Virus record (IMG/VR): IMGVR_UViG_3300029183_000019
Location: 1 to 34,794 of that record
Length of the DNA stretch: 34,794 nucleotides
Strand: one strand, 5' to 3'
Source of the DNA: a virus
Part shown: positions 1 to 34,794 of the stretch, in pieces
Layout: each line of letters begins with the position of its first letter
Numbering within the stretch: the stretch's first letter is position 1
Translations under genes and position numbers: made by a program
The notes under the pieces: model-generated
Databases searched by the model: none
What the model saw: only the letters and a program-made list of their open reading frames with translations
What the model was told of the DNA's origin: nothing

Positions 1-99
1 ACCTTCTTGATTAAGCATCTCAACAGCCTCCATGACCTTCGCTCGAGCTTTATCGCGGACCTTCGCATCCACTTCCATAAGAGACGACATCTTCTCACC
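1..99. repeat. Terminal direct repeat. Bases 1-99 are identical to 34696-34794, a contig-end overlap typical of a circularly closed assembly.
   Basis: Read directly. The same 99-nt string (accttcttgattaagcatctc...gacgacatcttctcacc) is at both ends, and it lies inside a coding frame. Confidence 0.97.
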
Positions 100-3084: not shown

Positions 3085-3104
3085 TTTGCCCCCTTAGGAC
3101 TAAT

Positions 3105-3290
3105 TTACGCCTTAACGTCCTTATTTTCTACTGCTTCTTGCTTATCACTGATTGCCTTAACAAAAAAGTCAGCAACTAGCTTCGCATCTTTTTGTAGCTC
3201 AGTATGGTACTCGGCTGTTCCTAAGCTCTTACCAGCAGCGTGCAATACTCGATTGAAGGCGTCTATCAATTTTTTACTCTCTTGAGACAT
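3105..3290 (-). CDS. Hypothetical small protein (61 aa)
   Basis: ORF with an ATG at 3290. The ORF track's first M is the TTG at 3293. It is coupled to the upstream small ORF by a TGATG overlap. Confidence 0.6.
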   Translation of the reverse strand: MSQESKKLIDAFNRVLHAAGKSLGTAEYHTELQKDAKLVADFFVKAISDKQEAVENKDVKA

Positions 3291-3463
3291 CAAACTTCCT
3301 TAAATTCAATGAGTATCTGAGATGGATCATTTGGATCAATCCCGATGCTTTCAATATCTAAAAACGTTCTGGTTTTAATAATAGAAGAAAACACCCGCTT
3401 CATCTCGTTAAAAAATTCAAGCTTGGTAATCCGAACTATTTGCTTTGTCGTTCCTGTAGCCAC
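3290..3463 (-). CDS. Hypothetical small protein (57 aa, GTG start), missing from the ORF track because it is under 60 aa
   Basis: TAGGAGGGCGAA-GTG at 3463. The reading is VATGTTKQIVRITKLEFFNEMKRVFSSIIKTRTFLDIESIGIDPNDPSQILIEFKEV. Its stop overlaps the next ATG by 1 nt. It fills an otherwise empty 180-nt gap. Confidence 0.5.
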   Translation of the reverse strand: MATGTTKQIVRITKLEFFNEMKRVFSSIIKTRTFLDIESIGIDPNDPSQILIEFKEV

Positions 3464-3472
3464 TTCGCCCTC

Positions 3473-4168
3473 CTAAGATGGGGCCAGAACCAAAAGCTGC
3501 CTGCCATCCGTAGTTATTCCCGTTGGACTTGTTAACCCATGCAAAAAGCCCCATTTACGCGGCTGGAAGTCATCTGGATCATAAACCCGAATAGCCGACC
3601 CATCAACAATCCAATAATCTTGACCGTCAAACGCCATGTCATTAATCGCTGCATTAGAGCCGTATCCCGCTACCTGTACGCCATTGCCCTGATTGCCCAC
3701 ATCATAAAGCCGATAAGTATGCGTGCTGACGACTACGACTTTGCACATCAAATTCATCCCATTCCAAGCCAAAGCATGAGGAATAGCTGTTCCTAGTGCT
3801 ACCGTTTGCTTCACTATTTTAGGAGTAGGATTTAAATCAAACAAATAAATTGCATTTGTTAACTGCTCGCCTACTAAAACTTGTGCAGCAACATAAAATT
3901 GCTGGCCATTAAATTCAGGATCGTGCCTGCCGTGATTAATGGCAACACCATAAGCATTTTGGATTGTGTCGTCTCCAGTATCAAAGTCATAAATATTCTT
4001 AATAAAAAGCTTTTGATCAAGATCAATTAAGGCAATGTTTGCGTTAGTGACTAATAATATTTGACCATTACCAACGTAGTCAATTTCTCCAGATGTGACT
4101 TCTGATCCTATGTTGGCAGACCAAAGCTGTGATCCGCTCAGTTTGTCAAACCCGTAAAGAGTAGCCAT
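3473..4168 (-). CDS. Structural protein with beta-propeller-like repeats
   Basis: 231 aa. It has repeated strand motifs (ILLVTNANIALIDL, IYLFDLNP, YRLYDVGN, YWIVDGSAIRVYDP, QLLVLAP). There is a 1-nt overlap with the upstream gene. Confidence 0.6.
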   Translation of the reverse strand: MATLYGFDKLSGSQLWSANIGSEVTSGEIDYVGNGQILLVTNANIALIDLDQKLFIKNIYDFDTGDDTIQNAYGVAINHGRHDPEFNGQQFYVAAQVLVGEQLTNAIYLFDLNPTPKIVKQTVALGTAIPHALAWNGMNLMCKVVVVSTHTYRLYDVGNQGNGVQVAGYGSNAAINDMAFDGQDYWIVDGSAIRVYDPDDFQPRKWGFLHGLTSPTGITTDGRQLLVLAPS

Positions 4169-5825: not shown

Positions 5826-6182
5826 TTAGATCTCGTCTGCTGCGTCAGATACGGCGATCATTACGAATGCATCAGACTCTTTAGCTGTCGTTCCGTCTGT
5901 TGCATCGAAAAACAAACACTGAACACTTGATGCTGATCTTGTGCCTACTTGAGCGATCACATCAGCAGTAGCTGGAGTAATCTGTACGTTAACAAGACGT
6001 GTCCCTGGATCTGTAATGGTGAGCGTATAATCCCCTGTGCCGTTATCCGTAATTGATACATCCTGAGCTCCAGTAAGAAGCTGAGGTGATCCCGTGTTTT
6101 CATCAATCTCTACTAAAATAAGTCGTGTCAGTCTCTGAGAGCTTTTGAGGGCTCTGACTGTTCTACTCGTTCCCCAAGGCAT
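5826..6182 (-). CDS. Hypothetical capsid-proximal protein, a possible decoration protein
   Basis: 118-aa ORF immediately downstream of the major capsid gene, with AAGGAG upstream of its ATG. Confidence 0.6.
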   Translation of the reverse strand: MPWGTSRTVRALKSSQRLTRLILVEIDENTGSPQLLTGAQDVSITDNGTGDYTLTITDPGTRLVNVQITPATADVIAQVGTRSASSVQCLFFDATDGTTAKESDAFVMIAVSDAADEI

Positions 6183-6201
6183 TTGATTCTCCTTTGTTTA
6201 G

Positions 6202-6241
6202 AGTCTTGAGCCCCATGCACCGTGACATGAAGCTCAAGACT
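6202..6241 (-). terminator. 10-bp perfect-stem hairpin just after the major capsid gene
   Basis: agtcttgagc (6202-6211) pairs with gctcaagact (6232-6241). The loop holds an inner CATG...CATG pair. The T-run follows the stem on the plus strand, not on the minus (mRNA) strand. Confidence 0.4.
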
Positions 6242-6263
6242 TTTGTGGTCGTTTATGGATACG

Positions 6264-8731: not shown

Positions 8732-10951
8732 TTAGATGGCACTAGTTGGCGCAACAGGAGGAGGCTCTGGGGTCCCAGGCTGAGAAGCATCGAGTGGAGG
8801 TAAGTCTTCTTGAACTGGAAGTTGTGGTTCTCCACCAAGTTCCGGATTAACAGGAATTTGCGGTGCTTCAGCCAAAGGTCCCTGAGTTAAGGCCCCTTCT
8901 TGCTGCGGTTCTTCCAATTCAGCTGTTTCAGGCATTGCTTGGCCGACAAAGAAAATCGGAAATAACGCTTCGTTACCAAGCTGCTCTTGTAATTTGGGTG
9001 AAAACTTCGCTTTGCGAGATAAATAATACTCGTGCACAAGTATGTGATCTTTTAGTTTCTTTTGAATTCTTAACGGAGTCGCTTCTTTGAAAGCATAGCT
9101 TTGCAGTGTGCGAACATGAATCTGCCAGTGAGTCAGATGATCTTCAAACTCTTTTACTCCGGCAGTCTTATCTCCATTTAAAATCATTTCATCTTCAGCT
9201 TCAGCTGACCTAACCGCCTGAGTGGCTGCATTGATAAACTTGTCACTTTGAGCCAGATCAAGCATGTCAAGCACCTGAGCGCTTGAGAACATGTCTGGGA
9301 ATTTATCGCTAAGATCAATGAGTGTTTGAGTTCTGGCAGCTTTGGACTGCGGTAGGGCAGATGAGTTTTGAACTCGAATGTCGTAAGCTTTAGACAAATG
9401 AGCTGAATCAAAAAACCTTGTTTGCCATTGCTCATTTTTGCCTAAAATACGCACAATTCTTTTGTCAGTAGAATCGTAATAATCCCCAGCTATAGCTAGC
9501 GTCTTAATCGCTGTTCGTCTAATGAAGCTATTAAACTTCTTGATGGATTCATTAAATCGTTCTGATTCTTGTTCATTTAAAAACTGAAGGGCTACTCCAG
9601 ATTCAATGCCTTGGGGTGGCTCCCCGCGGGATACTCCAAAGACTCCAGCGATTTGCTGAAACTCCTCTTTGAGAGCCGCTCTAAAAGTGAAAACTTCCGG
9701 TGGTGTAGGCGATGCCTGAACGAGCTGAGGGGGCTGAGGGCCTTTGTATTGAACAATCGTGATGTCGTTTCCAAGGGATTTAATCGAAGCCGACCCAGCC
9801 GGCATGACCCACTTTGGATGTGAGCACATGAACTGATTGCGCTGGACCATATTAGTAAGATTATTGTACGTGCTTGTGAGCGCTTTAACCGTTTCAAAAA
9901 ACGACCATCCATGAACTGACCCTGGAATATCGATATCAGTGAAGCGCTCAAACGGTAGCTCCATATGAGAATAAGGAAACTCAGTGTTTAAAAGAACTTC
10001 GTCTTTGGTGAAAACCATCATGCGTCCACGTGGCATAGCCGGCGTTCGCCTGTGGTAAAACTCCCAAATAACAACTTCATTAACGAGCTTGCGCGCTTCT
10101 AGTGTGTCGAAATCAAACTCTTCGAAGTCTTTGGAGTTTTTTATCTTATCCGCTGCATCAGGATACTTTCGTCTTGCCTCTTCAACTTGCATGACCTTGC
10201 GACGAAAGCAGTACTCTACCTTAGCGAATCGCTCCCTTTTTTGAAGGTACATGTCCCAAGGCATGACGACTTCATAATCAACATCACCAATCTTAACGGG
10301 CTTCTCAACGAAGATGGCATTGCCTAGTTCGTCTTTTTCTTGTTTGCCGTCTTCACCAAGCAGTGGAATTTTCTCTCCTTCTTCAGGAGAATCCGGATGG
10401 TTGTCTCCGAGATCAGGATTCCACGTAATAAATAGGTATGCTTCCCCTAAAATCTTGGCGATTTTTGTGACTTCAGACGTGATATCTCCGTCAAAATCCT
10501 TGATGTACCAAATATGCTTTAGTAATGAGTCCGTAATCTTAGCACTAACTTTATCCTCAAATTCATCGCTGGTCGGCAGGACTGCGACTGCAGGCTTGAA
10601 TTTGACAAGTCGTGAGACCAGATTTTGGGTGAGATCAAAGAGGTGATTGACCACGATTTTGGGAAAGGCTCGCGATCGGTTTACGCCTTCTTCGCGTCTG
10701 TCCTGCCGAACATCTTGAGTCTCGTACTGAATCCCTCGATACAAAGCGAGGTTACGCTTCATACGTCTGATTCTTTCAGTAGAGATCTCTTTTAAGAAAT
10801 TCAGCTCACCAGTGAGCCACTTATGGACAGACTGCTCGTTGTTCTTGTCATCAAGGTCAAACGACCAAAGGGCTTTACTTGGCCTTGCAATATCAGCGGT
10901 CGCATCGAGCGACTCAAACGGGTCGAACGCTCCGGAAGCCAATCCCCCCAC
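8732..10951 (-). CDS. Portal protein
   Basis: 739 aa. Its size and position fit a portal (downstream of terL, upstream of scaffold and MCP), and it has an acidic, Pro-rich C-terminal tail. The start is ambiguous: GTG at 10951 or TTG at 10942. Confidence 0.88.
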   Translation of the reverse strand: MGGLASGAFDPFESLDATADIARPSKALWSFDLDDKNNEQSVHKWLTGELNFLKEISTERIRRMKRNLALYRGIQYETQDVRQDRREEGVNRSRAFPKIVVNHLFDLTQNLVSRLVKFKPAVAVLPTSDEFEDKVSAKITDSLLKHIWYIKDFDGDITSEVTKIAKILGEAYLFITWNPDLGDNHPDSPEEGEKIPLLGEDGKQEKDELGNAIFVEKPVKIGDVDYEVVMPWDMYLQKRERFAKVEYCFRRKVMQVEEARRKYPDAADKIKNSKDFEEFDFDTLEARKLVNEVVIWEFYHRRTPAMPRGRMMVFTKDEVLLNTEFPYSHMELPFERFTDIDIPGSVHGWSFFETVKALTSTYNNLTNMVQRNQFMCSHPKWVMPAGSASIKSLGNDITIVQYKGPQPPQLVQASPTPPEVFTFRAALKEEFQQIAGVFGVSRGEPPQGIESGVALQFLNEQESERFNESIKKFNSFIRRTAIKTLAIAGDYYDSTDKRIVRILGKNEQWQTRFFDSAHLSKAYDIRVQNSSALPQSKAARTQTLIDLSDKFPDMFSSAQVLDMLDLAQSDKFINAATQAVRSAEAEDEMILNGDKTAGVKEFEDHLTHWQIHVRTLQSYAFKEATPLRIQKKLKDHILVHEYYLSRKAKFSPKLQEQLGNEALFPIFFVGQAMPETAELEEPQQEGALTQGPLAEAPQIPVNPELGGEPQLPVQEDLPPLDASQPGTPEPPPVAPTSAI

Positions 10952-12042: not shown

Positions 12043-12432
12043 TCATTTTAAGGTCTCCTTGTTTCCTAAAACAATTTTCTCCAGAGTGTTTTTTTGCTTT
12101 ATTTCAGATTCACTCATTGCTTCAACAATTCTTTTTCTTGCTATTTCAATGCATTTGATAAGATCTCTGTGAGAGGCAACTATATTTTTATCTTTTCTTA
12201 CAACAAATCCCCAATTTTCATACGCTCCTCCAGCTTCAAATTCACATCCTATTGTTACGTTACTTGGGAATCCTGTTGGTGGGTTTTTGTATAGAAAGTT
12301 TAAAACTTCATTGTCTGTATTAGTTACTTTAATCAATTCTGATTCTTGAATGCCCTCATCCATTGCCACTCGTTTGTCCTGATAAGCTAAACAGGGCTCT
12401 TCACCGTTTTCATAAATATAATAAGACTTCAT
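12043..12432 (-). CDS. Hypothetical protein in an AT-rich island, a moron candidate
   Basis: 129 aa with its own AGGAGG SD. It is flanked by non-coding gaps of 90 nt and 55 nt. My hand count gives about 31-33% GC, against about 42% in a capsid-gene sample. Confidence 0.7.
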   Translation of the reverse strand: MKSYYIYENGEEPCLAYQDKRVAMDEGIQESELIKVTNTDNEVLNFLYKNPPTGFPSNVTIGCEFEAGGAYENWGFVVRKDKNIVASHRDLIKCIEIARKRIVEAMSESEIKQKNTLEKIVLGNKETLK

Positions 12433-12522
12433 AATTTTACAAGCCTCCTACGTCGCCAAGTCCTTTTCCCCAACGTAAATTGAACAACTAAAACTCATAG
12501 CCCATATCGGTTTTTCTTGTTT

Positions 12523-13986
12523 CTAATCGCTTATCCACAACTCGCTCTCATCATCTATATCGAATAAGTCTTTAGGTTCACCCATCTCATCAAGACTACG
12601 AAAGTCATCACTGATTCTCGCTGATCTAAATGATTCATCTTTACTTTCTAGATATTCTTTTTCTGGCTTCACTGAGTAGTACGCAGCATGCAATGTGTAA
12701 CGTAAGCAGTCAACCAAATGATCATCCTTTTTAGGGATTTTACCCTGTTTATCTTTATAAAGATTGTCCATCTCCCAAAACAATTTCTCACATCTGTTAG
12801 AGATTCTTAACTTTCCTTGCAACAAGGTATCTTTAATCAGACTAATCCCGTGCTCCTTTTTGTTTGTGGACTTATGTGTGGGTTGCCAGAAGTCTTGGAA
12901 CCGATCCATCATCTCTGAGCTAAACCATTTCTCTGCCTCATCATAAGTCTTGGTCCATTCGTATCTATCATTGAGTTCATCTAGCTTGCTGATGATCTTT
13001 AAACCCATTTGGTTGACACTCATCTTGGATTGATCTGATTCATAGAGCTCATCGAGGACGTACCACACCTTAGTATAAGGATTGAGCGCCATAAAGATCA
13101 CTGCGAATACGGTAGCCGCTGCGGGGTCAGCGGTAACATACCAGTGAAGTTTCTTTTGGTCTCGAGCAATCTCTCGTAAGATGTCTGCATGCTTAAATAC
13201 ATGTTTGTCTCTATCTAACATCCCGAATATCTTCGTAATCCCGCCTGGTACGAACTCAGCCATGTATTCACGCTGCCATTCGTCTTCTTCCCCTCTAAGG
13301 ATGAGTCTTTCTTCTTCAGCATCTAACCACTCCTTAGCAATAAATGGGTTGTGATTCGTTGGAGCTCGGTAAAAATACTTCTTGGGGTCTTCTTTATGCT
13401 CTTTTGCAAGTAAGGTGTAATCACATTCTCGATCAGGTGGGGACCCCATGAATAACTCCACACCATCTAACACTGCTGCATTAGGGCGCATGGCTTTACG
13501 AAACTCAGGGCGATGATCTTTATACTCATCATAAATACAAAGCTTAAACTTTACTCCACGATAAGCATCGAAGTTATCTGAACCATCCACTTTAATGAAT
13601 GACCCGTTTTTAAAATTAAGCCTTAACTCTGAGTTATTAATCCCTTTGTTTCCATCAAGCAGCCACTTGCGCGGTCCGAATGTTTGAAGCCTTGGATCTG
13701 CCCACAAGATCTCTTTAGCTTGTTTGGCATAAGGACCGATGTAGTAGCAAGGAACACCTGGGAACCAGTAAGCGAAATGCCAAAGCAAATCGATAGCTAT
13801 TTCTGTCTTACCCCACTTACGTCCACACTGAAGGAATACGGATGTGTATCCGTCATTGAGAATTGCTTTGCCGACTATCTTTTGATCTAAGTGCGGCTTC
13901 CACTTCTTTCTTAATTGTTTCGTCAATTCGTGAAAGCGTAACTGGCTCTCGGTTAACGAAGAGCTTGATGACTTCGAGGAGGGCAT
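12523..13986 (-). CDS. terL: Terminase large subunit
   Basis: 487 aa with Walker A-like QCGRKWGKTE, Walker B-like LCIYDEY, and a C-terminal nuclease-type region (HWYVTADPA ... DDHLVDCLRY). Confidence 0.93.
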   Translation of the reverse strand: MPSSKSSSSSLTESQLRFHELTKQLRKKWKPHLDQKIVGKAILNDGYTSVFLQCGRKWGKTEIAIDLLWHFAYWFPGVPCYYIGPYAKQAKEILWADPRLQTFGPRKWLLDGNKGINNSELRLNFKNGSFIKVDGSDNFDAYRGVKFKLCIYDEYKDHRPEFRKAMRPNAAVLDGVELFMGSPPDRECDYTLLAKEHKEDPKKYFYRAPTNHNPFIAKEWLDAEEERLILRGEEDEWQREYMAEFVPGGITKIFGMLDRDKHVFKHADILREIARDQKKLHWYVTADPAAATVFAVIFMALNPYTKVWYVLDELYESDQSKMSVNQMGLKIISKLDELNDRYEWTKTYDEAEKWFSSEMMDRFQDFWQPTHKSTNKKEHGISLIKDTLLQGKLRISNRCEKLFWEMDNLYKDKQGKIPKKDDHLVDCLRYTLHAAYYSVKPEKEYLESKDESFRSARISDDFRSLDEMGEPKDLFDIDDESELWISD

Positions 13987-13997
13987 CTCTATGTGCC

Positions 13998-14273
13998 TCA
14001 GCTATCATGAGCTTGAGTTCTATTTCTTTCACGATCACCAACTTCTCTAAAAAAATATCCTGCCAGGACTCCGCAGAAAAACATATGTTTTTTCGATCCG
14101 GTCTCAAGGCTAGAAGCCTTTAGTAACGCTTCATCAAATATAGTTTCGGCTCTTTTAAGGTCTTCTTTGAGCTCACATAAAAACTTTTCGCCAACCGAAA
14201 TATTTTTCTTTTCTAAATGTTCAAAAAATTGATCAAATAGCGTTTTACGCTGCTTTTCCACTCTTTTTGTCAT
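13998..14273 (-). CDS. Hypothetical protein between terS and terL. The C-terminal third is doubtful (see the frameshift finding).
   Basis: 91-aa ORF. The N-terminal 60 aa look helical and charged. After an A6 run (14088-14093) the sequence becomes unprotein-like, while a second frame stays protein-like. Confidence 0.4.
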   Translation of the reverse strand: MTKRVEKQRKTLFDQFFEHLEKKNISVGEKFLCELKEDLKRAETIFDEALLKASSLETGSKKHMFFCGVLAGYFFREVGDRERNRTQAHDS

Positions 14274-14637
14274 CCTTCTTTTTATCTGGCACTAATTCAA
14301 TATATCCACTCTCTTTAAGCGACGTTTTAAAGTCTTTAAATGTAGGAGGCCTGTTATCGTAGATCGCTACTGCTTCTACTTTATCTGTGAATCCAAGGAT
14401 ATTCTTTGATAACCAAATCATCATCGCCACGTTTCCATTATCAACAGCGGATCGAAACATGGCTCTACGTAAGCTGAGTTTGCCTTCTTCTTTTCCTTTA
14501 GCGACTAAATCCGAAAATCGGTTTTCAATGGTTTGCGGGTCACAATCAACAATTCTTGCAATTTCTACATTAGTGCAATGAAGCTTCGCCAACTCGAATA
14601 CTAGGTTTTCGTCTATTTTAAGCTTTTGTCGTGGCAT
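14245..14637 (-). CDS. terS: Terminase small subunit (HTH type)
   Basis: 130 aa. It has an N-terminal HTH (LAKLHCTNVEIARIVDCDPQTIENRF) and the motif NGNVAMMIWLSKNILGFTDK, typical of small terminases. It lies upstream of terL. Confidence 0.8.
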   Translation of the reverse strand: MPRQKLKIDENLVFELAKLHCTNVEIARIVDCDPQTIENRFSDLVAKGKEEGKLSLRRAMFRSAVDNGNVAMMIWLSKNILGFTDKVEAVAIYDNRPPTFKDFKTSLKESGYIELVPDKKKDDKKSGKAA

Positions 14638-14806
14638 CCTTCACCCAGATTTCAAAGTCATCGTTTTTTTGTTCAATCCTCACATGAGGCGTATCGATAA
14701 CTGTCCAACTAGAACGCATGAATCCCATCATCGCAGCACTCATACTCATTGAGTCGTCTGGATTTAAAATGTAGGCACTTAGCATGACTGCATCATTATC
14801 AACCAC
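14618..14806 (-). CDS. Small early protein, tandem paralog A
   Basis: 62 aa. Its C-terminus SSWTVIDTPHVRIEQKNDDFEIWVKD matches the neighbouring ORF. Confidence 0.6.
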   Translation of the reverse strand: MVDNDAVMLSAYILNPDDSMSMSAAMMGFMRSSWTVIDTPHVRIEQKNDDFEIWVKDATTKA

Positions 14807-15002
14807 TCTTAACCCAAACCCCGAATTCTTCGTCTTGTTTTTCCATCCTGATATTTTTCGTATCGAGCATGACCCAGTTTGATTGAAACAATTCCATTAA
14901 ACCTACATTCATCATGTGTTTTACGTTTGATTTATTGACGTATTTTAGGGGGTCGTCCTCGTTTTCGTTTGGGTGGTTCGATGTTGATTTTTGTTGGCTC
15001 AT
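14799..15002 (-). CDS. Small early protein, tandem paralog B
   Basis: 67 aa. SNWVMLDTKNIRMEKQDEEFGVWVKS parallels paralog A. GGAG lies 7 nt upstream of the ATG at 15002. Confidence 0.6.
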   Translation of the reverse strand: MSQQKSTSNHPNENEDDPLKYVNKSNVKHMMNVGLMELFQSNWVMLDTKNIRMEKQDEEFGVWVKSG

Positions 15003-15267
15003 TATCGACTCCGTTTGGCATGGGCTTTGGGGTATTGCCTCCTGCTTTCATTTCTTGGCATTTATATTTTATCTTAAGAAGCGTTTCGATGGAGAGGCTT
15101 TCTAGTCTTGCGTCGATGTCTTTTTTGATTTTACGAATGGCTTCTTCTTCAGCGGCTGTAGCAATCGCGTCATAGGTCATATCGACTTTGTGGACTTGTT
15201 TAGCGACGACGATTGCGTTTGTGATAAAATCGAAGATCTGTGCGTCATCAAGCGATCTGAATATCAT
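14932..15267 (-). CDS. Early protein with a C-terminal AT-hook-like motif (PKRKRGRPPK)
   Basis: ATG at 15267 (the track's first M is a TTG at 15276). The GRP core is flanked by Lys/Arg. The last 71 nt overlap the next gene. Confidence 0.55.
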   Translation of the reverse strand: MIFRSLDDAQIFDFITNAIVVAKQVHKVDMTYDAIATAAEEEAIRKIKKDIDARLESLSIETLLKIKYKCQEMKAGGNTPKPMPNGVDNEPTKINIEPPKRKRGRPPKIRQ

Positions 15268-15325
15268 ATAAAACAATTACAAATGTTATTACTAATTGTA
15301 AATGACGAAAGCTCTAACTCTCTTC

Positions 15326-15496
15326 TTATTTCATCTCGTGTACGCGTTTACGAGATTCGTTATTGAGCACGCTTGCGTAGTTGTTGGTCGCCCGGGCGTC
15401 ACCGACCCCAATTGGCTTTTTACGAGGAGTAAGCTGCTTGACTTTCTTTGTTGGGAATCCAGCATTTGACGGCATTTTAGGTTTTTGAGCTGCCAT
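15326..15496 (-). CDS. Possible 56-aa basic protein (MAAQKPKMPSNAGFPTKKVKQLTPRKKPIGVGDARATNNYASVLNNESRKRVHEMK)
   Basis: Hand-translated ORF in the 315-nt divergent control region. It has no SD and would need leaderless or unusual initiation. Confidence 0.3.
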   Translation of the reverse strand: MAAQKPKMPSNAGFPTKKVKQLTPRKKPIGVGDARATNNYASVLNNESRKRVHEMK

Positions 15497-15550
15497 GATT
15501 TGACGTTAACAGATTTGATTGAGTGGTCAAGCTTAAGAATTGAATTTATA

Positions 15551-15580
15551 TTGACGCGCAACGCAATTAACAATTACAAT
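15551..15580 (+). promoter_or_regulatory. Sigma70-like promoter candidate, TTGACG-N18-TACAAT
   Basis: Read directly. The -10 element overlaps an AACAATTACAA motif that recurs at 15272-15282. Confidence 0.4.
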
Positions 15581-15591
15581 ACTTATTGACA

Positions 15592-15864
15592 ATGAATATT
15601 TATAATTCTAATCCCATACTCATGTCAAACCACAAGAGAATTTTACTCAAGATAAAGCAACAGGCCAAACGACGAGTATTACAAGCCAAGGTGAACAAGG
15701 ATTTGTACGACCAAGTTACTGCGAGATTGCGTGAGCACAAGATCCCTTTGACTGTGTGGCTTGAGGCTCAACTGACTAATTTTCTTGAAGAAACCAAAGA
15801 AATGCCCTCCGACGAGGAAAAATCCGCATCAGCATCTAAATCTAAAAAATCAACTAAATCTTAG
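15592..15864 (+). CDS. Ribbon-helix-helix (Arc/MetJ/CopG-like) transcriptional regulator
   Basis: RVLQAKVNKDLYDQVTARLREHKIPLTVWLEAQLTNFLEE fits a strand-helix-helix pattern. The start is uncertain: ATG at 15592 (nearly leaderless) or ATG at 15622. The track's M is a TTG at 15586. Confidence 0.65.
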   Translation: MNIYNSNPILMSNHKRILLKIKQQAKRRVLQAKVNKDLYDQVTARLREHKIPLTVWLEAQLTNFLEETKEMPSDEEKSASASKSKKSTKS

Positions 15865-15941
15865 TTCCATCTGAACACTGTTATCACTCTAAAACAGTAT
15901 GACAATTTATAATCACAATTAACATGTCTTCACAGACACAG

Positions 15942-15970
15942 TTGATTAAAACACTTTCATTTAGTAAACT
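15942..15970 (+). promoter_or_regulatory. Promoter candidate, TTGATT-N17-TAAACT
   Basis: Read directly. It lies upstream of the small lipoprotein gene. Confidence 0.35.
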
Positions 15971-15992
15971 AAAATCATAGGAGATGATAACG

Positions 15993-16370
15993 ATGAGAAA
16001 ATGTATTATGCCGATATTAATACTTCTTGCTTCGTGTGGCTCTGAGGAGTCTGCGATGATGGAATCTCAGAATGCAGCCTCACCTGCTTGTGAGGGCCTG
16101 AGTGTAGTAGGCAGGTGGGACAACCAGCTTGCTGTAGAAATCATGGAAATTGCCAATGACTGTACAGGCGTATCAGATACTTGTTCTGTTAAGTTTAGTT
16201 TTACTCCTCCTGATGCGTCAAACATGACCACGGTCACGGTGACAGAGTCAGCTGGGACTGCTGGGTGTTTGCCAGTTGGGACACACACCTGTGGGATAGC
16301 AACGAGCAACAACGACAACTTACTGACTGTTGATTGCCTAGGTAACCTTGCGTTTTACGATCGTATCTAA
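15993..16370 (+). CDS. Small Cys-rich lipoprotein
   Basis: MRKCIMPILILLASC|GSEE is a signal peptide plus lipobox. ATG at 15993 lies 9 nt after AGGAG. Beyond the lipidated Cys, the mature part has 6 further Cys. Confidence 0.75.
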   Translation: MRKCIMPILILLASCGSEESAMMESQNAASPACEGLSVVGRWDNQLAVEIMEIANDCTGVSDTCSVKFSFTPPDASNMTTVTVTESAGTAGCLPVGTHTCGIATSNNDNLLTVDCLGNLAFYDRI

Positions 16371-18748: not shown

Positions 18749-19051
18749 ATGGAAACCGTTCCAACTCACAATGCCCCTACGTTTAAAAAGACCTCAATCA
18801 AAGACGAAATCGAAATGCAAAAAGAAAACCTACTCATGGCTGTTCAGCTCGGCGTCATCACCTGGCCGCAGTTTTTTGAGCGATGGAATAATCTTCCAGA
18901 AGAATGTCCCATGACGGCTTCTGCTTTGCGTCGTAAATACATCGATATTTTAACTCGGCTTGAATCCGCTTACGATGACGAAAAAGTAGCTTTAATTGCA
19001 TTACTTAATGACATTAAGGAAAAGCTCCAAGAGCTCGTGCAAAATAATTAA
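18749..19051 (+). CDS. Hypothetical protein, first gene of the plus-strand operon
   Basis: 100-aa ORF with an AAGGAG SD. Confidence 0.7.
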   Translation: METVPTHNAPTFKKTSIKDEIEMQKENLLMAVQLGVITWPQFFERWNNLPEECPMTASALRRKYIDILTRLESAYDDEKVALIALLNDIKEKLQELVQNN

Positions 19052-19101: not shown

Positions 19102-19136
19102 GGCATAGCGTTCCCTCAATAAGGGGGCGTTATGCC
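19102..19136 (+). promoter_or_regulatory. RNA hairpin that sequesters the SD and start codon of ORF 19132
   Basis: ggcatagcgttccct (19102-19116), loop caata, agggggcgttatgcc (19122-19136). Of 15 stem positions, 12 are Watson-Crick pairs, 2 are G-U pairs and 1 is a mismatch. The 3' arm contains the AGGGGG SD and the ATG at 19132. Confidence 0.45.
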
Positions 19137-19380
19137 TTTGCGTAAAGAAAATTTCTCGCAAATTAATCTCTATAATACTTGGTGGCTAAACGATGAACGT
19201 AAAGTATCCACCACTCCTGTTACAGCCGTTTTAAATGTTGATGCTGTTGAATTTATTTCAGACTTAGGCCATTCCGAGAGGAATTTAAAAAGCATCATCC
19301 GCCTTACATCAGGCGCTGAATTTATCTCTCACCTCACTCCTACTGAAGTTTCTGCCCATTTATTTGAAGGAAAATATTAA
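19132..19380 (+). CDS. Hypothetical protein
   Basis: 82-aa ORF with SD AAGGGGG. Confidence 0.6.
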   Translation: MPLRKENFSQINLYNTWWLNDERKVSTTPVTAVLNVDAVEFISDLGHSERNLKSIIRLTSGAEFISHLTPTEVSAHLFEGKY

Positions 19381-19401
19381 TATTAATTCCAAGGGGGATT
19401 T

Positions 19402-21654
19402 ATGAAACTCGCTATTGCGTTTTTATTAACACTGCTCGCGTGCTCAGATTCTAAAGAATCATCACCATCACCTGCAAAAGCCCCACCTAAAAATCCTATG
19501 ATGTTTATGGCTAAAATGGGCTCTCCTGCAGGCAAACAAAAAATCGCCACAATTACAGTCGAAAATAAAGCATCTGAGAGAATTCAATGGGTCAAAACAT
19601 CCATCCCATTAGAAAGCGGTAAATTTAAATCCCAAAAAGATTTAAATGAACTCTCACTTGGTCACGGCGAAGTGGCCGCATTTCCAATAAAATGGAATTT
19701 TAAAAATGGCAAACAAGACAGCATCGCCATCGCGGGTCTTGAATTTCCTGTTTATTTTAATGGCGCTTCTACCGGTACTTACACCGTTAATCGAGATCCT
19801 AAGCCTAGGACAATCCCTTTTGAGTATGGCCCCAACCTAAAAGCACTCATGGGGATGACCTCATTAAATGATTCGCTCGTTTTAATTGCTAAAATAAAAG
19901 GCGACCCTAAGCTTTATTCGGCTTCGATGCTTGCTAACCCTCGCGTGATTCGAAACACAGCTCAGTGTCAAAATATTAGCTCTCGATCTCAATTTATTTC
20001 CAATGACATGCTAAGGTCCACTCATGCTCTTTCGGCTACCTTTTATTTTGAGTTTTGTAACCGTCAGGATTTTGGCTCTCTTATTATTGAAGTGGGTAAT
20101 AATACTTTTGAAAATCCTCATTCCGGTGGACTCGAAGTCGAGTTCGTAAAGCTTTTTGCGAAAACTCCATTTTTTGCTGAAATTAGAAACGCTTCAGATT
20201 ACGGAGCGTCCTCACCTACTCCAGATCTCTACGGGCTCGTTCGTATTGATTTAATGAGCCAAGATACGATTGCAGACGGTTCTGCTCGAGCCTTTAGAGG
20301 GCTATGGGGAGTTATCATTGAGAAAGACTCGCTGACTCATCGAAGCTTTCGGGCTTCGCTCGCTCACCCGCTTTTTGGTGTCGCAGACACTGCTTCATGG
20401 GTTACATCTAAATCCGGCGGTATCGTCGGGACTGTGATGCCGCCTAGAGCATCCATCCCCGATCTTAAAGCAAGTATCTCTAATCTCTGTACTGATTCTT
20501 ATAACGTTAGGGTGAATGCATCATCTACACATCAATACCTAAATAAAGCTCCAGGCATCACAGGCGATCAACCTAACTTCTCAGCCAATATGCCACTCAT
20601 GCAACACCAAGTTATCTTAACAGGAAGCCATTGTCCTATTGTGCACCTCATGCATGGGGTTCAAAGCGAAGTGAATCGTCCGTCTTATTTCTTTACTCAG
20701 GACCGCCGCATGGTTTGGCATGATACTCCGAGAACGTGCTTTTGGTGGTCAGGGCGTCCTCATTGGCACGCTGGTCAAAATGTAAATCACTGCAACGAAT
20801 GGCATACGCGCTCCACCTCTCAAGGTTTTGCCATTGGTGAAACGCATGGTTGGACAGGCGAAGACGACCAGCACTTCGGCAATCCGCATTTACGCGCTTT
20901 TTACGAGTTAACAGGCGATGCATGGGCTAAAGACCTCATAGAATATCGTCAGACATTAACTTTATGGAATAAGCTAGGTGAACACGATTGGCAACTAAAT
21001 CGCATAGGCTCAGAACGTTCTGTACGTCTCATGGAAGATGCGCTACAAAATTTACTTCTTTTACCAAACGCGATCACAGCCGCCGATTTAGCCTCGCAAC
21101 TTGATCGGCGGCTTAAGCTTCGGCGTGACGGCGCTTGCTTTGCTGGAGGCAGATACTGCTCCCAAGGCGTCAAACAAGCCAAAGCCACTTGGGGCGCAGC
21201 ACACCTTGAATCTGTTCATGATGACCCAAGACATTCTCAGTGCATGGGTCAAACGCCAGGCGGCACATGTAAACAAGGACAACCCTGCCCAGATAACCGT
21301 TGCGGTATTACCTGGTGGAGCGGCATGCATCTTGGCTGGGTTACAGCTATGCATCGTGCTGGGTTTGATCAAAATATGGCTCAAGAGTTAGCTGAAATTT
21401 ATTTTGATGACGCTGATTTTTTCTTTCAGCCAAACGGAATGAATGCCGGGAAACGAAGATTCAATGACTGGTCTACTCCAGTCTCCCCCTTTACTCAAAG
21501 CTGGCATGCAGGATGGATCACAACCATTGAGACCCTTTCAAGTGGCCACCCAAAGGAAGCTTTTCTTAACATTATTAAACAGTCTTTGAAAACGAGCTTT
21601 CAGTGCAATTCTCCTGGATGCAAGTGGTCAACTAATGATAAATGGTATCAATGA
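19402..21654 (+). CDS. Large (750 aa) lipoprotein of unknown family with a Trp/His/Cys-rich C-terminal half
   Basis: MKLAIAFLLTLLAC|SDSKE is a signal peptide plus lipobox. The SD is AAGGGGG. I recognise no catalytic motif. The gene is a GC mosaic by hand counts: about 38% GC at 19501-19600 against about 52-58% at 20701-20800 and 21121-21220. Confidence 0.85.
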   Translation: MKLAIAFLLTLLACSDSKESSPSPAKAPPKNPMMFMAKMGSPAGKQKIATITVENKASERIQWVKTSIPLESGKFKSQKDLNELSLGHGEVAAFPIKWNFKNGKQDSIAIAGLEFPVYFNGASTGTYTVNRDPKPRTIPFEYGPNLKALMGMTSLNDSLVLIAKIKGDPKLYSASMLANPRVIRNTAQCQNISSRSQFISNDMLRSTHALSATFYFEFCNRQDFGSLIIEVGNNTFENPHSGGLEVEFVKLFAKTPFFAEIRNASDYGASSPTPDLYGLVRIDLMSQDTIADGSARAFRGLWGVIIEKDSLTHRSFRASLAHPLFGVADTASWVTSKSGGIVGTVMPPRASIPDLKASISNLCTDSYNVRVNASSTHQYLNKAPGITGDQPNFSANMPLMQHQVILTGSHCPIVHLMHGVQSEVNRPSYFFTQDRRMVWHDTPRTCFWWSGRPHWHAGQNVNHCNEWHTRSTSQGFAIGETHGWTGEDDQHFGNPHLRAFYELTGDAWAKDLIEYRQTLTLWNKLGEHDWQLNRIGSERSVRLMEDALQNLLLLPNAITAADLASQLDRRLKLRRDGACFAGGRYCSQGVKQAKATWGAAHLESVHDDPRHSQCMGQTPGGTCKQGQPCPDNRCGITWWSGMHLGWVTAMHRAGFDQNMAQELAEIYFDDADFFFQPNGMNAGKRRFNDWSTPVSPFTQSWHAGWITTIETLSSGHPKEAFLNIIKQSLKTSFQCNSPGCKWSTNDKWYQ

Positions 21655-21848
21655 AATATTGGATACCAAAAAACGAACCAGGAACTATTTTTAACACTTT
21701 AGAAGACGCGAAATCTAAAGGCTTCACTAAAGACGATTTGGTGGAATTTATTCCAGCTCCAGCTACTTGGGTAAAACCAACGTTAATTATGCTAGCCGTA
21801 GTATGGACTTGCTTAATGATCACCAAAATATGCATCAAATATGGCTAA
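21642..21848 (+). CDS. Small C-tail-anchored membrane protein, translationally coupled to the lipoprotein
   Basis: C-terminal TM segment PTLIMLAVVWTCLMITKICI. The start is ATG 21642 (13-nt overlap) or ATG 21651 (ATGA overlap with the lipoprotein stop). Confidence 0.6.
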   Translation: MVSMKYWIPKNEPGTIFNTLEDAKSKGFTKDDLVEFIPAPATWVKPTLIMLAVVWTCLMITKICIKYG

Positions 21849-22044
21849 TGCTTTCAGAGAGCTCTTGTTAAAATATAAGCTCAACCAACGAGAGCTCTCT
21901 GATTTATTGGGCGTAACACCCTCAGCCGTCAGCTCTTGTGTGAACGAAAAAATACCGCTGCCTAGAAAATACTTAGACAAAACAGCGCAAATCTTTAAAG
22001 TAGAATCTAAACGTCTAGAGAAATTCTTTAACGATCACCCATGA
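21841..22044 (+). CDS. XRE/Cro-type helix-turn-helix regulator
   Basis: LNQRELSDLLGVTPSAVSSCVNEK is a classic HTH. It overlaps the upstream gene by 8 nt. Confidence 0.8.
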   Translation: MANAFRELLLKYKLNQRELSDLLGVTPSAVSSCVNEKIPLPRKYLDKTAQIFKVESKRLEKFFNDHP

Positions 22045-22328
22045 TTTCTTCTTGCTCAGATTGCACGAACAAATGCTGTAAATTAGGCCCTGGACCCTGG
22101 AAACCACTGCCCTTTAAAACTTGGTACAAACGCGGGTTTAGTGCCTTTGGGTGGAACACAAAATGTGAAAACTGGGATGAGGTGTCAGGAAATTGTTCCA
22201 TATGGAACACCGATGAGCTCCCTATTGAATGCAAAATCTTCGTATGCCATAATCGTAGCTACTCTGATGAAGAGTTAAGAAATATTAAAACTCTATCGTT
22301 TCAGATGATGATGAAACCAAATGGCTAA
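22041..22328 (+). CDS. Cys-rich YkgJ/UPF0153-like (CxxCxxCC-type) putative metal-binding protein
   Basis: It has CSDCTNKCC near the N-terminus and C...GNCSIW...PIECKIFVC later. There is an ATGA overlap with the HTH gene. Confidence 0.6.
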   Translation: MISSCSDCTNKCCKLGPGPWKPLPFKTWYKRGFSAFGWNTKCENWDEVSGNCSIWNTDELPIECKIFVCHNRSYSDEELRNIKTLSFQMMMKPNG

Positions 22329-22449
22329 ATTCTCTATTAAAACAGCATCTGCTTTGTTTAAGGTTAAAACCCGTAAAGCAAAAAAACCTCGCAAAACAAA
22401 ACGTAACCCTAAATCCAAAACAGTAAAGAATTCTAAAACTAATTACTAA
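22321..22449 (+). CDS. Possible 42-aa extremely basic peptide (MAKFSIKTASALFKVKTRKAKKPRKTKRNPKSKTVKNSKTNY)
   Basis: Hand-translated. It overlaps the previous stop and has no SD. Confidence 0.25.
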   Translation: MAKFSIKTASALFKVKTRKAKKPRKTKRNPKSKTVKNSKTNY

Positions 22450-22453
22450 TGCG

Positions 22454-22483
22454 TTGACACAATAGCGCCATCATGTTTATTAG
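22454..22483 (+). promoter_or_regulatory. Promoter candidate, TTGACA-N17/18-TTATTA/TATTAG
   Basis: Perfect -35 hexamer and a weak -10, in the 120-nt gap upstream of the recombinase gene. Confidence 0.35.
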
Positions 22484-22526
22484 TATTTTGTTTTAGCAAT
22501 GGTATTTACTACTAGCTTTTAAAAGA

Positions 22527-22562
22527 AAGGCCGGAGCGTCATCGACAAAACACACCGGCCTT
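22527..22562 (+). promoter_or_regulatory. GC-rich 8-bp stem hairpin (aaggccgg ... ccggcctt, 20-nt loop) abutting the SD of the recombinase gene
   Basis: Read directly. There is no U-tract on the plus strand. A T-rich run follows the stem on the minus strand. Confidence 0.4.
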
Positions 22563-22578
22563 AAAGGAGATGCTCACT

Positions 22579-23400
22579 ATGCCCCAAACTGACACAATGA
22601 GTACGCCTGCTCGATTATCACATTCTGACACCATACAGCAAGTCTTAATTCAAGGTGACCTCAGCCGGCTCACTCAAACGCAACAATTAGAGTACTATAA
22701 AACCGTCTGCCAAACTCTTAAACTCAATCCGTTTACTAAGCCGTTCGCGTTTATTAAGCTCAACGGCCAACTCAGGCTCTACGCTCTTAAAGATTGTACT
22801 GAACAATTAAGAAAGCTTCATAATGTATCTTTGGAGATTAAATCTTCTGAGATTATTAAAGACGTTTATCAGGTCTCTGTAAAGTGCTCCATGGGAGATC
22901 GCACTGATGGAGCAACAGGAGCAGTTTTTGTAGGGAACTTAAAGGGTGAGGCACTCGCAAATGCTTTCATGAAAGCCGAAACGAAAGCAAAACGAAGAGC
23001 AACATTGAGCATCTGTGGATTGGGTATGCTCGATGAAGCAGAAGTGGACTCAACTCCACTTCAAAAGCCAGTGATGGCAGGTCCTGCTTTGGTGGATACG
23101 CATCTGTCCCCTAACTCCTCAGATCGTTCCTCGATTCCTCCTAAGCAGGACCACCCCACACACTCAGGATATAGTTTAACCCAAAAACAACTCAAACGCC
23201 TGTTCGCTATCTCTAAACAAAACGGATGGAGCAACGACGCTGTCGCTCAAATACTTCAGTCTAAATTTGGAGTTGAATCCTCATCTGATCTATCTAGAGA
23301 ACAATACGACGAGATGTGTGATCAGATACTGCCTAACCCTCCCAAGCAAACTCCATTAAGTGCAGTTGATGATGTAGATGAATTCGAAAACTTTAAGTGA
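22579..23400 (+). CDS. Single-strand annealing protein, RecT/Redbeta-superfamily-like
   Basis: ATG at 22579 lies 9 nt after AAGGAG. FMKAETKAKRRATLSICGLGMLDEAE parallels lambda Bet KAMIQCARLAFGFAGIYDKDEAE. LNPFTKPFAFI parallels Bet LNPWTKEIYAF. Confidence 0.65.
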   Translation: MPQTDTMSTPARLSHSDTIQQVLIQGDLSRLTQTQQLEYYKTVCQTLKLNPFTKPFAFIKLNGQLRLYALKDCTEQLRKLHNVSLEIKSSEIIKDVYQVSVKCSMGDRTDGATGAVFVGNLKGEALANAFMKAETKAKRRATLSICGLGMLDEAEVDSTPLQKPVMAGPALVDTHLSPNSSDRSSIPPKQDHPTHSGYSLTQKQLKRLFAISKQNGWSNDAVAQILQSKFGVESSSDLSREQYDEMCDQILPNPPKQTPLSAVDDVDEFENFK

Positions 23401-24757: not shown

Positions 24758-24929
24758 TTCGATCCTCCGTTGACTTTGCCTCGTTGAGCTTTTTGAAAGT
24801 CTCATTGGCATCTTTGAAAAACTTCTGAGGCGTATCACCAAAGATATTACGTATGAACCCATAGACTTGTCTCAAAAACTTGAGCATCTCTGGGATGGCG
24901 ATGATCGCCTCAAGTACTTTTAAAATCAT
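24714..24929 (-). CDS. Small protein with a hydrophobic/amphipathic N-terminus, possibly membrane-active
   Basis: 71 aa, MILKVLEAIIAIPEMLKFL... followed by a charged helix. It overlaps the neighbours by 20 nt and 44 nt. Confidence 0.5.
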   Translation of the reverse strand: MILKVLEAIIAIPEMLKFLRQVYGFIRNIFGDTPQKFFKDANETFKKLNEAKSTEDRIEAARRINKLIHRI

Positions 24930-25398
24930 TAATTTCTTTCAATATTTGACAAACTCTTCCTTCAGTAATGCAAAAAATGAAAGCAATCTCTTTTTGGGTA
25001 AATCCATATAGTGTTGAAAGCAAATACACTGCGCGTTTCATCGGTTTTACTCTTTTAAAATAGTCTTCAATGTGAATATTGATTCCGAAAGCTCTTGAGT
25101 AAGACTCAGTAGCTCTTCTATAAGAACTTGATCGTTGTGTAAAAGAAGAGTTGGTCCTCGCCTCGGCAGACAATACTTGTCCGCAATTACTGCCACTATT
25201 CCTTGAGCGACCGAGGCGTTTTCTAATGAAATCAATAGCAGCTTGTTCAGCTGTTTGTCTCCATTTTTTTTCATGAAGCATCAATAAGTAGTCTTGAGAA
25301 AACTCAAGAGCAATTTGATAAGGAAATTTGTACTTTTTAGCAACAAATAAGGCCCTTCTCCGGTATTTCTTTATATTCTTCTCAGTTAAAAAATCCAT
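24910..25398 (-). CDS. Small sigma-factor-like protein (region 2-like N-terminus and region 4 HTH)
   Basis: The C-terminus RAVYLLSTLYGFTQKEIAFIFCITEGRVCQILKEI is a region-4.2-type HTH. The N-terminus ALFVAKKYKFPYQIALEFSQDYLLML is region-2-like. Confidence 0.55.
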   Translation of the reverse strand: MDFLTEKNIKKYRRRALFVAKKYKFPYQIALEFSQDYLLMLHEKKWRQTAEQAAIDFIRKRLGRSRNSGSNCGQVLSAEARTNSSFTQRSSSYRRATESYSRAFGINIHIEDYFKRVKPMKRAVYLLSTLYGFTQKEIAFIFCITEGRVCQILKEINDFKST

Positions 25399-25746: not shown

Positions 25747-26172
25747 TCAGATCAGTCTTAACCTAGTATACTGAGGCTTCAGTATCACTACAAGATCATT
25801 TCGGTAATCAATAGGACTGATTCTCACATAAGCCTTATCTCTTACTGCGTCATGAACTGTAAGCGTACTTCTTCCGCCTCCAGCGGCTTCAATCACACGA
25901 TACGAATCAATTGCAAAAGCAACATGCCTAATATTCGTCACACTTGAGCCATAAAACACTAACGACCCTGCTTGAGTCGTTCCATGAGAAGATTTGTTCT
26001 CAAAATAATCATAAAGAGTTTGTGCTGTTTGATCGCCCGGAGGATCCGCTCCAGCAGAGCGTAAAATGGCTTGCACAAGACCTGAACAGTCGAACCCATC
26101 CATGGGTGACTCGCCACCCCACTTGTAGGGGACTCCTACAAATTGCATGGCGTAAAGCACCATTAAATCCAT
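25747..26172 (-). CDS. NlpC/P60-family cell-wall peptidase (endolysin or virion-associated lysin)
   Basis: VGVPYKWGGESPMDGFDCSGLVQ carries the catalytic Cys motif. The downstream HVAFAI supplies the His. Confidence 0.88.
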   Translation of the reverse strand: MDLMVLYAMQFVGVPYKWGGESPMDGFDCSGLVQAILRSAGADPPGDQTAQTLYDYFENKSSHGTTQAGSLVFYGSSVTNIRHVAFAIDSYRVIEAAGGGRSTLTVHDAVRDKAYVRISPIDYRNDLVVILKPQYTRLRLI

Positions 26173-34548: not shown

Positions 34549-34794
34549 TTATGCCGCTTCACCGTTTTTCTTTTTCAAAGCGATGATGATCATGGCTTTT
34601 TTCCTTTCCATATCATCATCTCCAGCCATTTCCTTTTCGCCCATAGGATCGCCTGTTGAACTCATCATTTCCATAACTGCTTGAGTGCCATCAACACCTT
34701 CTTGATTAAGCATCTCAACAGCCTCCATGACCTTCGCTCGAGCTTTATCGCGGACCTTCGCATCCACTTCCATAAGAGACGACATCTTCTCACC
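34549..34794 (-). CDS. Small acidic Met-rich protein. The gene is cut by the contig junction and its N-terminus continues at 132-100.
   Basis: The ORF stays open to the window end. The full reading across the junction is MCPLLSDLEMGGEKMSSLMEVDAK...KKKNGEAA (92 aa). Confidence 0.6.
   Translation of the reverse strand, partial: GEKMSSLMEVDAKVRDKARAKVMEAVEMLNQEGVDGTQAVMEMMSSTGDPMGEKEMAGDDDMERKKAMIIIALKKKNGEAA
34696..34794. repeat. Second copy of the 99-bp terminal overlap (identical to 1-99)
   Basis: Read directly. Confidence 0.97.

Follow-up and report, generated by a model that had tools for sequence, protein, structure and literature searches.

A phage gene for a predicted lipid-anchored, probably glycan-cleaving envelope protein that recurs without conserved partners

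The sequence analysed here, hereafter the window, is the 34,794-nucleotide (nt) IMG/VR virus record IMGVR_UViG_3300029183_000019, and our subject is its gene at 19402-21654 on the plus strand, which with 2,253 nt makes up 6.5% of the 34,794 nt and encodes a protein of 750 amino acids (aa). The two ends of the window (1-99 and 34696-34794) overlap exactly over 99 bp, and the contig is therefore circularly closed and constitutes a complete phage genome of ~34,695 bp. Its products include an SU10/P22-like portal, a major capsid protein and an adaptor of the SU10 type, and a large terminase, together with a DnaB-like helicase, a DnaD-like loader, a VRR-NUC nuclease, an NlpC/P60 peptidase and a sigma-like factor; no integrase was found in it. 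The phage is an SU10/P22-like podophage of ~34.7 kb, whose host is likely a member of the Oligoflexia/Bdellovibrionota. The 750-aa gene lies on the strand opposite the head and tail genes, among the replication and recombination genes, and heads the rightward block that holds them. An earlier reading of the sequence (the original prediction) had joined it to three small downstream genes, for a tail-anchored membrane protein, an XRE regulator and a CxxC protein, as one system directed at the cell envelope.

The beginning of the gene is well defined. A strong Shine-Dalgarno sequence (AAGGGGGA, 19391-19398, plus strand) stands 3 nt before the ATG, a placement that supports 19402 as the true start, and hence translation of the signal peptide; its AAGGGG motif also precedes the orthologous gene of a related phage (L069). 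The N-terminus of the protein (MKLAIAFLLTLLAC/SD) contains a plausible lipobox for signal peptidase II (SPII). When lipoproteins were sought by a short basic n-region, a hydrophobic h-region and a lipobox of the form [LVI][ASTVIL][GAS]C no more than ~35 residues from the N-terminus, residues 1-14 were predicted to form an SPII substrate, with MK, LAIAFLLTL and LAC as the three successive regions. The signal peptide (MKLAIAFLLTLLA) and the lipobox Cys14 (L-L-A-C, with Ser at +2) occupy 19402-19443 on the plus strand, and the lipoprotein start of the original prediction is borne out in this respect. Next comes a tether rich in Ser, Pro, Ala and Lys (residues 15-44; 19444-19533, plus strand), which is unconserved in the alignment of homologues and predicted to be disordered, as in neither of the two AlphaFold models does the local confidence (pLDDT, predicted local distance difference test) of residues 1-44 reach 50.

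Nothing similar in sequence to the 750-aa protein was found in Pfam, PHROGs, NCBIfam, PADLOC, the PDB (phmmer) or GenBank phages (tblastn), in agreement with the earlier statement that it could be placed in no known family. A word-indexed search, covering 5.8 billion clusters, recovered three relatives with 39-46% identity, and a second search of this kind, using the alignment, added a single one (P0074). A full hidden Markov model (HMM) scan of 1.84 billion representative proteins yielded 69 family representatives, which makes this a rare family. Pattern-based scans of genome contigs and IMG/VR found no relatives, and a pattern-based scan of metagenomes returned only a further copy of the bacterial locus that holds P0003. 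The alignment used for conservation and for AlphaFold comprised 52 family sequences with 16-46% identity.

Most members of the family carry either a lipobox or a Sec signal, consistent with the envelope-directed nature that had been proposed for the protein. Lipoboxes are present in five of the six phage-borne copies, namely in the window gene, P0004, P0005 (after correction of its start), P0081 and P0074 (likewise corrected), and the bacterial copies P0002, P0003 and P0018 have Sec signals.

The 52-sequence alignment gave an AlphaFold2 model of high confidence (pLDDT 91.2, predicted TM score (pTM) 0.91), which superseded a first run on 4 sequences whose result was unusable (pLDDT 47). In this model, residues 45-305 (19534-20316, plus strand) form two beta domains, a small N-terminal barrel-like domain (~45-135) and a beta-sandwich of ~10 strands (~159-305), where the near-invariant N55 and D292 are located. 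Residues 310-750 (20329-21654, plus strand, stop codon included) form a C-terminal alpha/alpha toroid with ~12 main helices, delimited by AlphaFold, conservation and Foldseek. When the model was compared with the PDB by Foldseek, the top 13 matches were all chains of the exo-rhamnogalacturonan lyase PcRGLX, of polysaccharide lyase family PL26 (probability 1.0, E = 2.5e-8 to 3.5e-6, TMq 0.44-0.53), and they spanned essentially the whole 750-aa chain. The next family lay far behind (E of at least 3.6e-4, TM < 0.25), and the remaining PDB matches were all carbohydrate-active proteins (dextran dextrinase, GH38, GH94, GH116, GH63 and GH48) with (alpha/alpha)6 or beta-sandwich folds.

PcRGLX from Penicillium chrysogenum (PDB 5XQ3, 5XQG, 5XQJ, 5XQO) is therefore, by Foldseek, the nearest solved structure by a wide margin. 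The architecture that characterises it, with a small barrel at the N-terminus, then a beta-sandwich and lastly an alpha/alpha toroid, is found in the model in the same N-to-C order. PcRGLX differs in being ~130-150 residues longer than the 750-aa protein, fungal, secreted and non-lipidated, and the plant rhamnogalacturonan-I on which it acts would be an implausible target for an Oligoflexia phage. Within the family, the Pfam domain PcRGLX_1st ('N-terminal RIFT barrel domain') was weakly matched by three distant members (E = 0.008-0.013) at a position equivalent to the N-terminal domain, with sub-threshold scores (16.4 bits vs a cutoff of 22.1), and one member matches GH88 (E = 9e-4). Two other members are fused to further segments: P0073 (1407 aa) has a C-terminal DnaT_2 domain (E = 1e-29), and P0060 (879 aa) has an N-terminal sigma-70 region-4 segment ahead of its PcRGLX_1st-like domain.

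Folds of this kind are met elsewhere among viruses. Two unnamed viral proteins in BFVD, A0A516M318 (738 aa) and A0A6J5SAL0 (430 aa), have the same fold (Foldseek E = 3.7e-16 and 7e-5) with no detectable sequence similarity to the 750-aa protein, and the fold therefore occurs in other phages under other sequence families. The alpha/alpha-toroid class is known in phages but rare: among the 984 phage proteins to which the DepoScope study assigned a polysaccharide-degrading fold, 11 (1.1%) belonged to it (PMC11326577).

A confident match to an ordinary family, such as a tailspike depolymerase, had been named in the original prediction as a result that would speak against it, and AlphaFold and Foldseek gave a divided answer. 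A polysaccharide-lyase-like fold was indeed found, and in this the protein resembles tailspike and tail-fibre depolymerases, yet the gene is not a tailspike or any other structural gene. It was rejected as a tailspike depolymerase on three grounds: its gene is well separated from the structural genes and on the strand opposite to theirs, it begins with a signal peptide and not a virion-anchor domain, and it has a toroid in place of a beta-helix or beta-propeller.

Conservation is concentrated on a small set of residues. D488, H491, R539, R542, W638 and W701 are invariant in all 52 aligned sequences, and N55, D292, G388, Q390, F393, R426, W449, H454, Q490, G679 and W748 are kept in at least 47 of them. 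The conserved residues of the toroid map to loops and helix N-termini of the model, which is where toroid enzymes place their active sites. Judging from conservation and model positions, a putative glycan-binding catalytic site is the simplest reading of the invariant Asp/His/Arg/Arg/Trp/Trp/Gln cluster where the toroid helices begin, and the two invariant Arg together with the His suggest a lyase that would act on an acidic, uronate-containing polysaccharide.

These residues also bear on whether the protein would cleave its target or merely cover it. T5 Llp and the Cor proteins of phi80 and N15 are lipoproteins of ~60-80 aa that bind a protein receptor and thereby block it. Catalysis by the 750-aa protein is a prediction, and as such known phage exclusion lipoproteins (T5 Llp, phi80 Cor) work by binding, the protein might similarly be a non-catalytic surface lipoprotein that blocks a receptor or glycan on a degenerate enzyme fold. 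We consider this very unlikely, since D488, H491, R539, R542, Q390, R426 and H454 are invariant or near-invariant in the 52 members, from phages and bacteria alike, as is typical of a retained active site, and since at 750 aa the protein is ten times the size of known blockers. It shares with Llp and Cor its nature as a phage lipoprotein from a non-structural region and the benefit proposed for it, but differs from them in being enzyme-like, in having no homology to them (Pfam, PHROGs) and in that its proposed mechanism is enzymatic.

The mature protein contains 14 Cys, and the richness of its C-terminal half in Cys, Trp and His had been pointed out in the original prediction. The Cys enrichment is real; its behaviour is that of disulfide pairs and not of a metal cluster. 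In the 52-sequence alignment, the members of four pairs are gained or lost jointly (363/411, 15/16; 446/464, 6/7; 579/586, 3/3; 623/629, 5/6), a co-variation that indicates probable disulfides of an exported protein rather than a metal site. A metal-binding reading of the C-terminal half was rejected because the Cys come and go in pairs and none is invariant in the family.

In order to place the gene in its surroundings, we read nine family contexts, window included, out of the 69 family representatives. Five of the other eight are phages or phage-like: a related podophage (L069/L070, with P0009), whose portal, terminase, NlpC/P60 and VRR-NUC proteins are 70%, 62%, 60% and 59% identical to those of the window and whose major capsid protein is 95% identical over its N-terminal 118 residues; a phage-like contig (L005, P0004), where the gene follows one for a patatin-like lipase; a siphovirus-like phage (L068, P0005), where it lies within a plus-strand island; another phage with an SU10 portal (L072, P0081); and a Mu-like phage (L064, P0074). 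The others are bacterial. P0002 (L001/2) and P0003 (L003/4/L050) are encoded on Oligoflexia chromosomes at a conserved PilZ - gene - HD locus, adjoined by a GlmS gene whose product is 90% identical to a protein from an Oligoflexia metagenome-assembled genome. P0018, a distant member, is encoded on a 3.09-Mb bacterial chromosome (L071) next to GH43, sulfatase and MR_MLE genes, the last for an enzyme of sugar-acid type.

When every window protein was searched against these contexts by tblastn and blastp, a homologue of the 750-aa protein was found in all eight, and none of the small open reading frames (ORFs) around it, neither the 82-aa ORF upstream nor the 65-aa membrane protein, helix-turn-helix (HTH), CxxC and 42-aa ORFs downstream, had a homologue in any. 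Backbone genes are shared with the window only in L069/L070. There, the big gene is in the same place, again heading the rightward block, but the genes downstream of it are wholly different, and across the contexts its neighbours are unrelated from one to the next. A neighbour-joining tree interleaves phage and bacterial copies. P0009 and the window protein are 35% identical, against 70% for the portals of the same two phages, and the chromosomal genes of Oligoflexia resemble the window copy more closely (44-46%) than P0009 does. The gap between 35% for the big protein and 70% for the portal suggests that its allele may have been replaced, may turn over rapidly or may evolve fast.

The same comparison could point to a host-derived auxiliary gene that boosts a function of the host, for instance the breakdown of prey or environmental polysaccharide in Bdellovibrionota. 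The closest homologues (44-46% identity) do lie on Oligoflexia chromosomes, at a conserved locus, the tree intermingles the copies of phages and hosts, and the distant member P0018 sits in a polysaccharide-utilisation-like neighbourhood. We nevertheless hold such a role to be quite unlikely: the change from secreted proteins in bacteria to lipid-anchored ones in five of six phage copies favours a cell-autonomous surface role over foraging, and the gene recurs in at least six unrelated phages with small genomes, where purely metabolic genes are rare.

The ORFs that the original prediction had drawn together are all present, and the junctions between them are as it described. Upstream of the 750-aa gene lies the 82-aa ORF (19132-19380, plus strand), whose Shine-Dalgarno sequence and ATG are covered by a hairpin at 19102-19136 (plus strand) with a 15-bp stem (folding free energy -26.6 kcal/mol, z = -4.99, 0/200 shuffles folding as well). 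Only a short run of U follows the hairpin, which had also been noted before and may serve as an attenuator or terminator for the preceding ORF at 18749-19051 or as a translational gate. Downstream, the stop of the 750-aa gene overlaps the start of the gene for a C-terminally anchored, single-pass membrane protein (21651-21848, plus strand), either by ATGA at 21651, giving 65 aa, or by 13 nt from 21642, giving 68 aa; an independent gene caller run on the same phage (L066) chose the 65-aa version. This protein has one strong hydrophobic segment (residues 44-62) with 3 residues beyond it, as expected of the tail anchor assigned to it earlier, and no homologue in the phages searched. Judging from the overlap, it is probably translationally coupled to the 750-aa gene, and a joint function of the two is putative.

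Its gene overlaps by 8 nt, at 21841, that of a 67-aa XRE/Cro-type HTH protein (21841-22044, plus strand). The earlier assignment of the latter is confirmed by a score above the Pfam HTH_3 threshold (25 bits vs a cutoff of 23, E = 1.9e-5) and by a match to PHROG transcriptional regulators (E = 3e-6), and the protein is an ordinary phage early regulator. An ATGA junction at 22041 then leads into the 95-aa Cys-rich ORF (CSDCTNKCC...; 22041-22328, plus strand). Its proposed YkgJ-like identity did not survive comparison with the Pfam family CxxCxxCC (PF03692, YkgJ), where it reached 11.3 bits vs a cutoff of 23 (E = 0.6); its motif is CxxCxxxCC, one residue longer than CxxCxxCC, and no homologue was found in any database searched. 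Whether this ORF is a real gene is uncertain: in codon usage the antisense frame scores just as well, and the independent gene call on L066 has a 57-aa antisense ORF (22028-22201, minus strand) in its place. The chain of overlaps then runs on into a fifth ORF, an extremely Lys-rich one of 42 aa (MAKFSIKTASALFKVKTRKAKKPRKTKRNPKSKTVKNSKTNY, 22321-22449, plus strand), which overlaps the 95-aa ORF by 8 nt and has a positive codon score (0.10).

Four consecutive start/stop overlaps, and two products (the lipoprotein and the 65-aa protein) that belong to the envelope, speak for the proposed functional unit with its own regulator, possibly for superinfection exclusion or defence/anti-defence, and small envelope ORFs flank the homologue in L064, L005 and L069 too. 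However, 19 of the 36 same-strand neighbouring gene pairs in the window genome abut or overlap. Overlap is therefore the norm in this genome and does not distinguish the four genes, whose chain moreover reaches a fifth ORF. No partner homologue stands beside any of the eight other copies of the big gene, not even in the related phage, where the locus of the big gene is the same, and the lack of co-occurrence is a result that the original prediction had itself named as telling against it. The CxxC ORF is a doubtful gene with no homologue, the flanking envelope ORFs elsewhere are non-homologous save for one pair shared by L068 and L069 and absent here, and PADLOC recognised no defence system, its only matches being generic HTH models to the 67-aa protein (E ~0.002). 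A four-gene system is accordingly extremely improbable. As the small ORFs were never found beside homologues of the big gene, the four-gene set does not appear to be a conserved unit, and the big gene apparently moves alone. The 750-aa gene is a self-contained accessory gene, and the tight chain is ordinary phage gene packing; where a phage genome is compact, overlap of starts and stops does not by itself argue well for a functional module. What stands out here is an uncharacterised protein family and its pattern of lipid anchoring, whereas the four-gene system that had been proposed finds no support.

A small envelope ORF does lie directly downstream of the big gene in all four phage contexts inspected at the ORF level (the window, L005, L064 and L069). 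In the window this is the 65-aa tail-anchored protein (21651-21848), in L064 a 50-aa protein with an N-terminal membrane segment (10354-10506), in L005 an uncalled 61-aa lipoprotein ORF (6072-6257), and in L069 a 143-aa lipoprotein (12312-12743). The L064 ORF overlaps the stop of the big gene by 4 nt. The four are mutually non-homologous. The 143-aa lipoprotein of L069 (MKVLILTVVFLATLPSLAGC..., plus strand) is homologous to a 172-aa ORF of L068 (12870-13388, minus strand), with 37% identity over 91 aa (E = 4e-11), and both adjoin a homologue of the big gene; this pair, absent from the window, is the only recurrent neighbour that was found.

The occurrence, in four phage contexts, of a small membrane protein or lipoprotein ORF behind the gene for the exported, enzyme-like protein might suggest a lysis accessory enzyme, which would degrade an outer polysaccharide layer late in infection with the small membrane protein as its holin- or spanin-like partner, by a logic analogous to that of mycobacteriophage LysB. 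It fits with this that the L005 copy comes directly after the patatin-like lipase, and that no holin or spanin was identified elsewhere in the window. Such a role is unlikely, however. The gene heads the replication and recombination block, away from the candidate lysin, an NlpC/P60 gene that the other strand carries at 25747-26172; the 65-aa protein has neither the charged C-terminal tail typical of holins nor the N-terminal membrane segment of an i-spanin; and the bacterial orthologues occupy a conserved locus, PilZ - gene - HD, which is not a prophage. The arrangement also departs from that of a spanin/holin cassette, with a lipoprotein as long as 750 aa, a small protein whose membrane segment is C-terminal, a candidate lysin 4 kb off and no PHROG lysis match in the window.

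With somewhat better than even confidence, we propose instead that the 750-aa gene is a single-gene cassette for an envelope-anchored, probably glycan-cleaving enzyme that would act on host surface polysaccharide. The product would be exported through Sec and signal peptidase II and lipid-anchored at Cys14, from which a tether of ~30 residues would extend to the folded part, a disulfide-stabilised succession of barrel, beta-sandwich and toroid. In E. coli, Ser at +2 directs a lipoprotein to the outer membrane, and under that rule the Ser at +2 would place the protein there. The enzyme would then cut the surface polysaccharide of the infected cell itself, be it capsule, extracellular polysaccharide or an O-antigen-like receptor or barrier, with the benefit that further phages would be kept off the infected cell and its debris, or that progeny would be freed. 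Phage copies are nearly always lipid-anchored and the closest bacterial copies secreted, which makes the infected cell's own surface glycan the likeliest target. Of the roles listed in the original prediction, modification of a polysaccharide or receptor fits the predicted fold, and a defence system finds no counterpart in PADLOC.

Several results weigh against this proposal. The link to PL26 is at the level of the fold only, with 8-10% identity and a root-mean-square deviation of 8-12 A, and no sequence-level tie connects the protein to PL26 or to any toroid family of CAZy or Pfam: it has no Pfam PcRGLX domain above the gathering score, neither phmmer nor the 52-sequence profile matched a PDB chain at E <= 10, and the toroid segments of six members had no match in Pfam. 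P0009, the orthologue encoded by the phage most closely related to that of the window (L069), lacks a signal peptide, and the function of the protein in phages therefore does not require lipid anchoring. The 'early' timing of the gene would follow from its position alone, with no promoter identified. Finally, the small envelope ORFs next to the big gene could be a coincidence or could reflect a loose functional pairing beyond the reach of homology tests, the latter at odds with a gene that acts alone.

If the proposed enzyme exists, its nearest functional analogues would be the exclusion lipoproteins discussed above and the phage depolymerases that are not part of the virion. PghP of Bacillus phage phiNIT1 is a soluble enzyme of the latter kind. 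The 750-aa protein would be like these depolymerases in being of a glycan- or capsule-degrading type, encoded outside the tail module and predicted to be extracytoplasmic. It would be unlike them in that five of the six phage copies are predicted to be lipid-anchored to the producing cell and not released, and it has no sequence relation to any GenBank phage record.

A wider scenario can be drawn, which we regard as doubtful. The family would found a new family of polysaccharide lyases or glycosidases, related to PL26 by fold only, which phages of Oligoflexia/Bdellovibrionota would have captured repeatedly from their hosts, turning a secreted protein into a lipid-anchored 'receptor-destroying enzyme' for enzymatic superinfection exclusion and protection of progeny, which would remove the surface glycan of the infected cell where the known exclusion lipoproteins block a receptor. 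If the proposed reading of the 750-aa protein holds, a family of sequence orphans would gain a testable assignment as PL26-like glycan-cleaving enzymes and become a candidate new CAZy family. It would also reveal a recurrent phage strategy, in which a secreted host enzyme is tethered to the envelope of the infected cell, and an enzymatic counterpart to the blocking lipoproteins of superinfection exclusion. To our knowledge, almost no genes of Oligoflexia/Bdellovibrionota phages have been characterised, and the enzyme would provide a first functional handle on them.

Some further features of these genomes were recorded. Besides the patatin-like phospholipase gene (2874-3674) that precedes its copy of the big gene, L005 encodes NeuB, a methyltransferase and a UDP-glucose/GDP-mannose dehydrogenase (12753-15999), a gene content that suggests sugar-modifying auxiliary functions. 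In the window, a candidate shared early-promoter motif (TATTTAGTATTGT) was discarded because it did not exceed chance, as was a candidate terminator at 22445-22572, which folded no better than shuffled sequence. Phage relatives sought in IMG/VR with the helicase of the window were not found. The gene at 22570-23400 (plus strand) encodes a 276-aa protein that resembles a single-strand annealing protein of mosaic make-up: the last ~90 residues are 45% identical to a Pfam-ERF protein of L069, and the N-terminal 160-250 residues are 43-56% identical to proteins from 13 otherwise unrelated IMG/VR contigs, which have nothing else in common with the window. At 24910-25398 (minus strand), a 162-aa protein has a C-terminus resembling sigma-70 region 4 (Pfam E = 2.5e-4) and may be a phage sigma factor for late genes.

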